Below, piece by piece: positions 2,954 through 24,150 of a stretch of 64,000 bases of DNA (the stretch's first letter is position 1; every line of letters begins with the position of its first letter). Under the pieces are notes generated by a model. The model did not search any database and was not told the DNA's origin. It saw only the letters and a list, made by a program, of their open reading frames with translations. The DNA is from Eledone cirrhosa. Its lineage: Eukaryota. A program made the position numbers and the translations under genes. The stretch covers positions 337,218,001 to 337,282,000 of the forward strand of contig OZ024740.1 of NCBI GenBank assembly GCA_964016885.1. The letters run 5' to 3'.

Positions 2954-3019
2954 TATTTTATTATACCTATTTCAGAGGTACTGAGCTATTTCAACAGTAT
3001 GTCCTCATCAGATAAAATA
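2954..3019 (-). ncRNA. Type I hammerhead ribozyme motif (AUA family)
   Basis: Inverted copy of 3123-3188 with an intact core. Confidence 0.75.
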
Positions 3020-3122
3020 AGTTGATGCCTGACATACCTTGACTATGTTGAGGGTTATAATTTAGTCATGCCATGACTGAATTAAAACCATCAACATAGT
3101 CAAGGTATGTCAGGCATCAACT

Positions 3123-3188
3123 TATTTTATCTGATGAGGACATACTGTTGAAATAGCTCAGTGCCTCTGAAATAGGTATAATAAAATA
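3123..3188 (+). ncRNA. Type I hammerhead ribozyme motif (AUA family)
   Basis: UAUUUUAU-CUGAUGA-[GGACAUACUG...CAGUGCCUCU]-GAAA-U-AGGU-A-UA-AUAAAAUA. Stem I is 8 bp, stem III 2 bp, stem II imperfect. Confidence 0.75.
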
Positions 3189-3359
3189 TATTTGATCACA
3201 TGAATGTCTATATTTATTAATATTTTGAAGTAATATTAATAATTCCAGAAAACCTATTGTAGAGTGCTTCTAATCTATTGTGAAACTTTATTCATTGATT
3301 AATTCATTAAACCTTCTTAAACTTTTAATTATATATATATATATATATATATGTATGTA

Positions 3360-3700
3360 TATGTTGGGGGACATAGAAATAGTTGGGCTGGACACACGAT
3401 CGTGTGGTTAAACCACTGGGAGTGAAGGACCCCTAGCCTTTGTCAGGGCATTCTTCTTGGAGAAGGCAAACAAGGAAACTGGGATAACTCTGGCATAACA
3501 CCTGTGGCTCAGTAGACCTTTTCTTCTTTTTGGGTTATAGCTACTGTCGCTCAGAGAGTGGGATTGGCTCAGTGCACAGTCTTTCCTCACTTAAAAAAAA
3601 CCTTCACGCACAGGCATTGCACGATAGAATTAATTAATAATTATTAATAATGGTATATCGTGCAATGGCTATACTCAATAACGAGTGGGCAGCCATCATA
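3360..3700 (+). repeat. Unclassified interspersed repeat (partial)
   Basis: Closely similar to 15185-15670 and related to 62678-63380. Confidence 0.75.
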
Positions 3701-3734
3701 TATATATATATGATGATATATGTATATACATATA

Positions 3735-4490
3735 TAATAATAATAATGGAATTATTGTGTACAGTGCTCAGGTGCACTACAACTCATCAAAGGTGCATGT
3801 ATAGTACATAGAATAATATACAAATGTCAGGGAAGTGAACAGTGTATGAGTCATGATATACATGTGTGAGTGTGTATGGAGGAGGAATATTAGGTGTAGT
3901 GTTGGGGAATCTCAGGAAGCATGGAGGTTTTAAAGGATGCAGTGTCTCAACAGCTAATAACTGATGCAGGTAGTTTATTCCATGCTTCAGCAACTCTGAG
4001 CATGAAAAGATGTTTCCGAAAGTCATGGGAGCTGTGTTATTTTCTGACTTTGTTGGCATACCCACGTGTGTTAGACACATGGAAATCAAAAAGGTACTCA
4101 GGGTTGTTGTTAGCAAGATGGTTAATAATTTTGTGGGTGTTTACCAAGTCAGTTGCCAGACTGAGCTTCAATGTATCCATGCCCAGGGAAGTAAGGTGTT
4201 CAGAGTATGGTAGATGCCTGATGGAGGGTATTCGAATGTCTCTGAACAGTTTCCAGGTGGTCAATGTTCTGAGCAAGATAGGGGTTCCAGACTGGTGATG
4301 CAAGTTCTAAGTGTGGCCACACCATAGCTATATACAGTTTTAAATAGATAGCTTTAAATAGATAGCTTTAAATAGATAGCTTTAAATAGATAGCTGACAA
4401 AAGTCTTGCTGAGTGATGCTAAGACTACCTCGGCCTTCTTGACAATTTTAGAGACGTACTTTGTCCAACACAAATCACTGCTGACAGTCT
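3735..4490 (-). mobile_element. CR1-group LINE, 3' fragment
   Basis: Peptide IPSIRHLPYSEHL...NTRGYANKVRK is typical of the CR1 ORF2 C-terminus. (ATT)n tail. Copies at 56215 and 59530. Confidence 0.85.
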
Positions 4491-21176: not shown

Positions 21177-21657
21177 AAAACCACTTACTATGAATTTTAA
21201 AGTAGTGGCTATGTCACTTACTTATTCTCGGTAAAAGCAAAGAAGAGTGATCGACAGACAGTCTGTTTCTCTCTCGTTAGCGTTTATCAAGACCTCTCAC
21301 TCCTTTGTTTTTGCTGAGAGTTATAGAAGCTGGATTCTTATAGAATTCCAGTAATATTTAAGAGCTGATTAAACAGAGGGGTTGCTGGTCCAGCAAAAAT
21401 TAGGTATTAGTATCGGTGCTTTGAAATAGCGATGTATACATGAATGTATATATAGTATATTTGACAATGAGTGAGAAACAGGACTGTCGATCACTCTTCT
21501 TTGCTTTTGTCGAGAATAAGTAAGTGATATAGTCACTACTTTAAAACTCATTACGAATGGTCTTCAAAATATTTTAAATTAAACATACAGTATATTGCCA
21601 AATATACTATACATACATTCATGTATACATCGCTATTTCAGAGCACCAATACTAATA
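21177..21657. repeat. Interleaved double inverted repeat (pLTR-like)
   Basis: 21177-21275 pairs with ~21465-21567; ~21405-21467 pairs with ~21593-21657; (TA)n flanks. Confidence 0.8.
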
Positions 21658-22194
21658 TATATATATATATATATATAAATAAATATATGATGGTTGCATC
21701 TTGCTTTCGAGAATTGCTATCACTTGATAACTTTCTCACATATGAATGGCATGAAAGTGACTTTTAGGCACTGCCAAGGACTTACATTTCTTTTTTCTTA
21801 TTCTGCAATGAAAGAAAAAAAAGAAGCCATTTTTGGTTACAGCCATCCACGTTCATGCAACACACATATAAGATGTTTAGCTCAAGTGCCTGCACTTGAG
21901 GTTTTTTTAAGTGAAGAAAACTTTGTATTTAACTAATCCTACTCTCCAAAAAAAAAACAAAACAAAAAAAAACAGGCCAACATCATTGGCTGCCATCGAG
22001 TCACAGGTTTTACATAAAAACATTCCTTCTTCTGGAATGATGCCCTAATAAAAACCATGAATCTTCTCTCCTGCTTGGCTAACTGTGCACTTGGGCACCA
22101 AATCAAGTATTTCTATGTCTGCATATATATATATATACACACATAAATACCTATATATATATATATATATATATATATATATATATATATATAA

Positions 22195-23741
22195 TCATCA
22201 TCATCATTTTACATCCGCTTTTCCCTGCTTGCAAGGGTGGGATGGGTCTTATTCAGCACAGCATCTCTCCACTTGTCAGAGTGCTTCGTCATCTCTACCG
22301 TGAGCTTCAGCGATCTGAGGTCTGTTCTCACCACCTCCACCCATGTTTTACGTGGTCTACCTCTACCATGTCTTCCTTCAACTGGCATTTCCTGGCACTT
22401 CTTCACCCATCGGTCATCCTCCATGCGCATCACATATCCAAACCCCCTCAGTCTCCTCTCTCGCACACTACATTCTATCCCTCTCAGACACAGTTTCTCT
22501 CTCAACACATTCATGCTGCATCGTTCACACACATTGACACTGCACATCCAATGGAGCATGCTTGCTTCATTTCTCTCCAGCCATCGCATATCCCCTGCAG
22601 TTGCTGCCCATGTCTCAATACCATGCAGCATCGCGCTCTTCACACAGGCATCATATAACCGGCCTTTCGTACGCAGGGAGAAACCCTTCTTCGTCAGCAG
22701 AAGAAGCAGCTCCCTAAACTTCTTCCAACCCGTCCTTATTCTAGATACTATGGCATCAGAACACCCACCTCCCATGCTAATCTGATCTCCTAGGTACTGG
22801 AAGCTATCCACCACTTCTATAGCACCCGCCTGCATTTGAAAAATGTGTCTATTAATGCAACTTCTACTGTCTAATTTCCCTGTACATCTACTGCATACAT
22901 ATTTCTCCCTACCTGTTAGTTTGCCTGCTATCCCGCTACATCTCTTGTGTACCCAGGATCTGCATTGTGTGCATTTTATAGAATTTATGCCAGTTCCTTT
23001 TCTACATATCGAACATGGCCATTTCCCTGACGGAATCAGAGTTTTGTCCTCTTTTCTACTCATCAACACTTTTGTCTTAGCTAAGTTCACTCTCAGTCCT
23101 CTTGCTTCTTCCAACTGCTGTTTTTATAGCCAGAATTTATTCTCTAGCTCCTCTACTGATTCTGCTATAAGAACCAGATCGTCAGCATAGAGAAGTTCCC
23201 ACGGACAGCCAGTCTTAAACTCCTCTGTTATGGCTTGGAGGAATATAATGAACAAGAGCGGGCTGAGGACCGAACCTTGATGTACTCCTACTTGTATCTG
23301 GAATTCCTCACTAAACTCCATTCCTACCCTGACTTTACTGACAGTACCTCTGTACAAAGTTTGCACTGTCCTCACAAGCCATTCCTCAACACCTAGTTTC
23401 CTTAGGGACCACCAGATGAGAGATCGGAGTACCCTATCAAAGGCCTTCTCTAGGTCAACAAAGGCTAAGTATAGTGGCTTATTTTTCTCTAAGAACCTCT
23501 CTTGTAATTGTCTCACCAAGAAGAGAGCATCTGTTGTACTCTTTCCAGGCACAAAACCAAACTGCGTCTCATTTAGTTTGACCCTTTCTCTAATTAGTTG
23601 TGCTAATATCCTTCCTGCCACTTTCATAACCTGATCCATCAGTTTTATACCCCTATAATTGCTCCTCTCCAGAGCATCCCCTTTACCTTTGTAGCAATTT
23701 ATGAGAATACTGCTGCACCAGTCTTTGGGTATGACACCACC
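22195..23741 (-). mobile_element. RTE LINE subfamily C, 5'-truncated, frameshifted
   Basis: RT motifs FVDLEKAFDRV, GVHQGSVLSP, LYADDL plus PHD-like finger. Almost no 3' UTR; (GAT)n tail. Confidence 0.93.
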
Positions 23742-23937
23742 ATATATATATATATATATATATATATATATATATATATATATATATATATATATATATA
23801 TAAGCAAAGGGATATTTAATTTGTTGGTAATTCAACAAATATATATATTTATAACCGATTTGAAGCACTTGACAGGTTTTCTGGAGTATAATATCAATGA
23901 TATTAATAAATGGAAACTATATTTATAAAATCATATT

Positions 23938-23998
23938 TATTCTATTATATATATTTCAAGGGTACAAAAACTTTGGTACGCTCTCATCAGATAAAATA
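23938..23998 (-). ncRNA. Type I hammerhead ribozyme motif (AUA family)
   Basis: Inverted copy of 24090-24150. Confidence 0.78.
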
Positions 23999-24089
23999 CA
24001 AAGTTTGTTTTATAAATATTGAACCAGGTAAATCTTGAACCGTTAAGGTATCATTCCTGGTTATGTCAATATTTATAAAACAAACTTTG

Positions 24090-24150
24090 TATTTTATCTG
24101 ATGAGAGCGTACCAAAGTTTTGGTACCCTTGAAATATATATAATAGAATA
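24090..24150 (+). ncRNA. Type I hammerhead ribozyme motif (AUA family)
   Basis: UAUUUUAU-CUGAUGA-GAGC-GUACCAAA-GU-UUUGGUAC-CCUU-GAAA-U-AUAU-A-UA-AUAGAAUA. Confidence 0.8.

Follow-up and report, generated by a model that had tools for sequence, protein, structure and literature searches.

A hammerhead motif with a palindromic stem III, probably cleaving as a dimer, in truncated Penelope-like elements of Eledone cirrhosa

The role of hammerhead ribozymes in Penelope-like elements (PLEs) is still open. Metazoan PLE hammerheads have been described with a type I topology, a long stem II, a palindromic stem III, AU-rich flanks, thousands of solo copies derived from truncated elements and a model of cleavage as dimers (Cervera and de la Pena 2014, PMC4209133); the palindrome and the dimer model have also been reviewed (PMC6765202). 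The Hydra clade of PLEs, which includes Hydra-1_Obim from Octopus bimaculoides (Craig et al. 2021, PMC8557442), joins a type I hammerhead whose stem III is palindromic to one open reading frame (ORF) for a reverse transcriptase (RT) with a C-terminal GIY-YIG endonuclease. Its members share the residues DKT in place of DKG, a CxCx5C linker, and CxxC and CxH around E and N, and they show (TA)n targets, an inverted 5'-truncated arm and a one-sided tail. We find the same features in Eledone cirrhosa, starting from a 64,000-nucleotide stretch of contig OZ024740.1 (positions 337,218,001 to 337,282,000; hereafter the window). Three insertions in the window are likely to be 5'-truncated copies of three Hydra-clade PLE families, A, B and C, whose pseudo-long terminal repeat (pseudo-LTR) carries a type I hammerhead that self-cleaves after AUA only as a dimer.

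A first-pass annotation of the window had proposed a motif common to the three insertions, and this is borne out. The pattern CTGATGAG-N10-40-GAAAT-N4-ATA, which spans the core, a spacer and the AUA site, occurs five times in the window (Table 1), whereas 100 dinucleotide shuffles averaged 0.02 and none reached five; the 8 bp of stem I are paired in all five motifs. Scanning the genome (3.0 Gb) for exact pattern matches returned three forms that differ by subfamily at pair 10.1-11.1, which is purine-pyrimidine throughout: A-U with 41,600 matches (by a slightly looser pattern than for G-U), G-U with 12,158 (6076 + 6082; the reversed pattern gave none) and G-C with 1,877. Together these make at least 55,635 motif copies, and the number of insertions is smaller because mirror arms are counted twice. 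We conclude that the motif is real and structurally selected. The only match in a metagenome scan (L141) was discarded as a chance occurrence with stems I-III unpaired, and a PDB sequence search gave no relevant match.

For structural analysis, we collected 153 distinct copies from the window and from fetched genomic loci (976 kb in total, numbered with the prefix L), a non-random sample because the copies were picked through patterns and endonuclease matches. They sort into at least nine subfamilies, all built on the type I core CUGANGA ... GAAA ... UH with three helices and helix I open. The AUA triplet fits the RUH consensus for hammerhead cleavage (PMC7936874), and position 17 is other than A in just 340 genome matches. 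Stem II begins with R10.1-Y11.1 and continues with two pairs that alternate between A-U and G-C, a mismatch, and 3-12 more pairs. At the mismatch, position 4, C stands at 10.4 in 149 of the 153 copies, facing C or U in 145 and G in none. The helices first quoted for stem II lie beyond this point, after G10.1, three pairs and the pyrimidine mismatch. A register with an extra nucleotide after A9 was rejected, as it breaks stem II. Most copies lack the G10.1-C11.1 pair of type I hammerheads, which is still compatible with type I membership because the pair is relaxed in published Hydra-clade motifs too. The first-pass annotation was right that U11.1 is not the product of CpG decay, as entire subfamilies are A-U or G-U while the G-C subfamilies retain C. 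Its description of G-U in place of G-C as a family trait does not hold, with A-U the commonest pair and G-C subfamilies present.

The type I assignment and the covariation claimed for it were likewise sustained. Among 16 subfamily representatives, 98.3% of cells are paired, compared with 33-61% in slid controls, and changes on both sides affect five of six pairs in stem II and two of four in stem III, counts in which relatedness is included and which do not amount to a test of significance. Unaided, RNAalifold recovered stems I and II with the gap at position 4, and did not recover stem III. Stem II had been called unrelated among the elements and freely swapped. It does pair in each, but its proximal seven positions are nearly letter-identical between families A and C, so the stem is inherited with compensatory change and not swapped; its vertical descent tracks the ORF tree. 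The elements are not otherwise dissimilar either, since A and C share 68% identity over 130 nt 3' of the hammerhead (58% when shuffled), with identity at chance over the 100 nt 5' of it. Nor is the sequence of stem I fixed. Across subfamilies its 8 bp vary almost wholly by G-U wobble without double-sided changes, and a sister hammerhead family (loci in Table 1) has a GC-containing stem I and the core CUGAAGA, keeping AUA, the palindrome and the C-C mismatch; stem I is thus conserved as a helix, not as a sequence. In L139 the sister hammerhead is found downstream of a Hydra-type endonuclease, at a distance of 1.2 kb. Across subfamilies, changes in stem I are nearly all A-to-G opposite U, which may reflect plain wobble tolerance or a trace of adenosine-to-inosine editing.

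From A15.1 to U16.1, stem III reads as an 8-nt palindrome, AUAUAUAU in 49, AUAUGUAU in 48 and AUGCGCAU in 33 of the 153 copies, and the 8-mer is fully self-complementary in 136. The varying loop III reported earlier (AGGU, GCAC, AUAU) does differ among the window copies, but it is the centre of this palindrome, and two of its forms have decayed: AGGU, from AUGU, occurs in four copies of the 153 (two being the window mirror pair), and GCAC, from GCGC, in one. Within one molecule, stem III would have 2 bp and a 4-nt loop at a computed +4.7 kcal/mol. Paired between two RNAs, the computed self-duplexes reach -3.2 kcal/mol for AUAUAUAU, -2.2 for AUAUGUAU and -10.5 for AUGCGCAU; the first two are predicted to cross-pair, and AUGCGCAU to pair well only with itself. 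As stem III cannot usefully close within one molecule, the palindromes of two hammerheads would pair with each other, completing both cores. The partners could be the two pseudo-LTRs of one tandem transcript or two separate RNAs, and cleavage, probably inefficient, would free a unit-length RNA. Cleavage mainly in the dimer is probable. Cleavage of the monomer, with the 2-bp stem and tetraloop stabilised by a tertiary contact of the unpaired stem II C or by a protein, has some precedent in the axolotl Amex2 hammerhead, in which a 2-bp helix III with a U-U mismatch allows some monomer cleavage (PMC7229834), and the C at 10.4, never paired with G while the adjoining pairs covary, could serve such a contact. 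This reading has little probability: in context, closing stem III within a monomer costs 2-3.5 kcal/mol, and the supposed loop bases have remained self-complementary across a double change from AUAU to GCGC and in a wobble form, something for which a loop in a monomer has no need.

An association with PLEs had been suggested, and looking for RT and GIY-YIG ORFs confirmed it: each hammerhead subtype sits downstream of its own ORF family. A GIY-YIG-type ORF 1 kb upstream of a B hammerhead served as the starting point, retrieving 150 scored matches, and in nine of the ten B ORF loci returned (one being the query) a same-strand B hammerhead lies downstream. For A and C, we used two endonuclease remnants from upstream of solo copies as queries and fetched 16 of 40 matches each, with about 2 kb of flank. 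An A hammerhead follows in 12 of 16 A loci and a C hammerhead in 5 of 16 C loci, with three more showing an inverted C arm only. In the fetched loci, the first hammerhead after an A, B or C endonuclease is never of another subtype. L047 preserves a copy of pseudo-LTR/ORF/pseudo-LTR layout; 3.67 kb separate its hammerheads, and its start codon follows the upstream cut site by about 200 nt, so that RNA cleaved there would begin about 200 nt ahead of the start codon. L123 holds an intact 800-aa ORF from Met between outward-facing arms, with the motifs DKT, YRDD, CxCx5C, CxxC..E, CxH and Y-x-Y.G.T.

All three Hydra marks (DKT; CxCx5C; CxxC and CxH around E and N) are present in subfamily B2. DKT is also found in A1 and C1, whose protein rows covered the RT part only, and CxCx5C in D, a fourth family. 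The RWK position reads RWT in B2, RWI in B1 (L046) and RWR in another family of the same genome. A Pfam search of full PLE proteins gave no relevant match, and the GIY-YIG match on L031, at E 0.0074, was weak and fell below cut-off. Between families, the A, B, C and D proteins have 42-66% identity, and their ORFs form one clade (Shimodaira-Hasegawa-like approximate likelihood ratio test, SH-aLRT, 100) in a quick, midpoint-rooted tree of 32 rows, 18 of them ENA homologues (29-38% identity) and the rest families of the same genome. PLE membership is practically certain. Placement in the Hydra clade, based on motifs and a by-eye comparison with the reference alignment, is highly probable. Several other ORFs were rejected as parents: an RT fragment in L009 and its 830-832 aa family, a nested element with the motif at its end in none of ten fetched loci; ORFs in L071, L137, L140 and L097, nested elements outside the A-D clade; and a GIY-YIG ORF in L014/L034, which belongs to a different element. 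The 830-832 aa family is a young Hydra-type family (L059-L068 and further matches) with many intact frames, the 832-aa group being about 99% identical, and a scan of its loci with the type I pattern detected no hammerhead belonging to it.

Could the motif instead belong to small non-autonomous repeats, of retrozyme or foldback type, that lie near PLE ORFs only because each kind targets (TA)n? The window copies lack an ORF, unrelated Hydra-type families are often nested, and when solo A or C copies were fetched with 5.5 kb of upstream sequence an endonuclease remnant appeared in just 5 of 20. We regard this as highly improbable, as the linkage is subtype-specific with fixed distance and orientation, and an ORF lies between pseudo-LTRs in L047 and, intact, between outward-facing arms in L123. 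Among 40 same-family neighbour pairs, moreover, 34 face outward and just five lie on the same strand. Non-LTR retrozymes consist of non-coding head-to-tail tandem units of 150-450 bp (bioRxiv 10.64898/2026.07.22.740005, PMC7229834), an arrangement unlike that of these elements, with their outward-facing pairs and linked ORFs.

Insertion follows the Hydra-clade pattern: copies lie in (TA)n, have tandem or inverted pseudo-LTRs and carry a tail at one end. Their ends in (TA)n cluster about 40-50 nt and about 130-140 nt from the cut, and in 30 of 34 outward-facing pairs a long arm is combined with a short one (p 3e-6 against even odds), as it is in all three window elements. The one-sided tail fits the drawing by Craig et al. 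(PMC8557442). By analogy, the long and short arms fit two-end priming from two RT start sites, as seen in vitro for PAc, a Poseidon PLE of Anolis (Frangieh et al. 2024, PMC11167929), in which both DNA strands are cut and extended and the tail is set by two RT start sites downstream of the hammerhead. In the Eledone families, the endonuclease would open (TA)n, both DNA ends would prime, and reverse transcription would begin at two sites 3' of the hammerhead. The tail pattern implies templates that retained an uncut or re-ligated hammerhead at their 3' end.

We looked in the genome for traces of cleavage. Of 208 B copies, 30 run from the tail into the 5' region; seven of these start 3' of the cut at scattered points. 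Genome-wide, 82 matches have non-matching sequence directly 5' of the cut, and by their 5-nt flanks they comprise 38 small deletions or fold-backs at the palindrome, 27 (TA)n-like junctions and 17 others. A control position 8 nt upstream gave 21 matches, and a second control, with seven, was too restrictive for comparison; neither control admits (TA)n junctions. A listing of sequencing runs gave four from one study, their kind unrecorded, and none marked as RNA, which carries no information about expression. Fold-back junctions in L175, L188 and L178 fall at the stem III palindrome or between the stem I strands, which suggests template switching at the ribozyme's own complementary segments.

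Several points weigh against self-cleavage in the dimer. Of the 30 informative B copies, 22 continue upstream past the cut and the one that starts at it does so with microhomology; in the genome-wide comparison there is no clear junction excess at the cut over the control, an absence that fits a circular template as well as cleavage that is inefficient or does not occur. Single-copy minimum free energy folds depart from the active fold, with core nucleotides paired, and the A, C and D palindromes are weak, at -2 to -3 kcal/mol. Lineage B acquired the double change to GCGC a single time, so that by itself it counts as one event, and the shuffle controls overstate significance because the subfamilies are related. 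Rfam hammerhead models, a check proposed by the first-pass annotation, gave no match at E<=5 across the window or at E<=10 over 15950-16300. Among published systems, other PLE hammerheads have low activity even as dimers (Cervera and de la Pena, PMC4209133), and cleavage is dispensable for insertion in vitro, which hammerhead mutants do not reduce (Frangieh et al., PMC11167929).

This last result, the missing junction peak, the A-U or G-U pair at 10.1-11.1 in most copies and the rank of AUA as the slowest of four triplets tested after transcription (PMC1636495) would all suit a hammerhead-shaped RNA signal that cleaves barely or not at all and is kept for binding by an element protein or for RNA dimerisation and packaging. 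Such a signal seems unlikely. The entire catalytic core and H17 are retained across ORFs as divergent as those of the four families, no subfamily has G at position 17, and related PLE hammerheads cleave in vitro (PMC4209133, PMC11167929). We still favor a hammerhead that cleaves, probably inefficiently, as a dimer.

Within the window, the 8-mers of both A1 hammerheads have decayed to AUAGGUAU, while the minus-strand C1 hammerhead keeps AUAUAUAU intact with one distal stem II mismatch. The B1 arm matches the downstream pseudo-LTR of L047, a nearly complete element, at 95% identity, and its 8-mer, AUGCACAU, is probably a CpG decay product of AUGCGCAU. A dispersed repeat (family D13) at 16246-16433 later split the B1 long-tail fragment and is associated with a 17-nt duplication. 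Read-through RNA of the palindromic copies is predicted to fold into long hairpins of -260 and -193 kcal/mol, which would bury the ribozyme; these window copies are likely inert.

Table 1. Hammerheads and PLE insertions in the window, with loci of the sister family.
Feature	Position	Strand	Remarks
Family A1 palindromic PLE insertion between (TA)n tracts, no ORF	2910..3328	.	boundaries +/- 5 nt; two 3'-end arms facing outward; left tail short, right tail long
Hammerhead family A1, stem I to stem I	2954..3019	-	predicted cut 3' of A at 2962
Hammerhead family A1	3123..3188	+	predicted cut 3' of A at 3180
Family B1 arm: 3' untranslated region end, hammerhead, short tail ending in (TA)n	16062..16228	-	
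Hammerhead family B1	16097..16167	-	predicted cut 3' of A at 16105
Opposite arm of B1 insertion, long-tail fragment only	16229..16526	+	
Family C1 palindromic PLE insertion between (TA)n tracts, no ORF	23803..24194	.	boundaries approximate; left tail long, right tail short
Hammerhead family C1	23938..23998	-	predicted cut 3' of A at 23946
Hammerhead family C1	24090..24150	+	predicted cut 3' of A at 24142; same as a common genomic form
Sister hammerhead family	L016, L071, L109, L116, L139, L148, L182, also L098		

Other hammerheads and retroelements lie nearby. A second, unrelated hammerhead family occupies 25967-25997 (-) and 26456-26486 (+) within an inverted repeat at 25858-26595. It has U-U at 10.1-11.1, a 4-bp stem II, the 6-nt palindrome ACUAGU and a GUA site, it too is laid out facing outward, and in L034 it flanks Hydra-type endonuclease remnants. 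In L034 itself, three or more PLE types are nested over 8 kb as a large palindrome that includes a non-Hydra GIY-YIG ORF. About ten more hammerhead-like families occur in the fetched loci; their palindromic stem III spans 6-12 nt, and many have a 10.1-11.1 pair other than G-C. Most unrelated hammerhead families in these loci have a palindromic stem III, and no palindrome filter was applied. ORFs of the long interspersed nuclear element (LINE) type, with endonuclease and RT and RTE-like by appearance, are found at 27219-30338 (+), which is a 1040-aa open frame, 38853-40154 (-), 22212-23831 (-) and 57145-57957 (+).

One genome thus offers a natural series: nine or more subfamilies share a fixed core, pair 10.1-11.1 takes three states among them, their three palindromes are of very unlike strength, and at least one ORF is intact. 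In this series, the dimer model and what the conserved mismatch does can be tested directly. More than 55,000 motif copies, of which those in the window escape the Rfam models, also indicate the scale of ribozyme-like sequence overlooked by standard annotation. As a tentative possibility only, these hammerheads may form an undescribed dimer subclass, defined by R10.1-Y11.1, the unpaired C at stem II position 4, the 8-nt palindrome and AUA, in which the palindrome acts as a pairing code between co-resident retrotransposon families. If so, the most abundant sampled lineage may have shielded its RNA from trans cleavage by relatives, and the unpaired C may rescue the weak 10.1-11.1 pair through a tertiary contact.

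The distinct, possibly undescribed family of the first-pass annotation proves to be three families of a known kind of element, which do appear uncatalogued in the literature searched; Repbase, Dfam, the O. vulgaris repeat library (190 Penelope-like families), Lunse et al. 2017 and one supplement file of PMC4209133 lay outside that search and may contain them. Four diagnostic words were sought in the supplement of PMC8557442, where line breaks could hide matches: three were absent and the fourth occurred once, inside a Naiad ORF. A weak 10.1-11.1 pair had been thought unusual, yet G-U or U-U next to GAAA is published for Hydra-clade PLEs. In File S2 of PMC8557442, most Hydra families have U before GAA, with U-U in many and G-U in Penelope-13_HM, Penelope-17_HM and Hydra-1_Obim, and 13 of 26 Hydra rows have A at the cleavage position. 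What we did not find in the literature searched is A-U as the main pair, a PLE that combines AUA with U15.2-A16.2, or a conserved C-Y mismatch in stem II.

The AUA site is likewise present but only partly unusual. Natural AUA hammerheads, ELVd (+), sCYDV-RPV (+) and cherry csc RNA (-), are active, if slower than GUC after transcription (PMC1636495); they share AUA before the cut, but they are viroid or satellite RNAs with a stable 5-6 bp helix III and loop-loop contacts, unrelated in sequence and context. PAc resembles the Eledone families in its insertion, and its RNA-seq is reported to lack ends at the cut site (PMC11167929). It belongs to another clade, however, and its hammerhead overlaps the ORF start, whereas the ORF here begins about 200 nt past the cut; the two ends of the present families, about 90 nt apart, also set them off from PAc. 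From the published Hydra-clade elements the present ones differ in length (about 3.7 kb and 800 aa, longer than those described) and in RW[T/I/R] in place of RWK. The hammerhead of Hydra-1_Obim differs in sequence from those of the window families, and published Hydra triplets are GUH with C15.2-G16.2 (U-G in one row), unlike AUA with U15.2-A16.2. Three pairs followed by a C-Y mismatch are found in the window families and in no Hydra hammerhead listed in PMC8557442. We conclude that the class of element and its likely mechanism are known, and that the structural details of this hammerhead make it a modest new variant.

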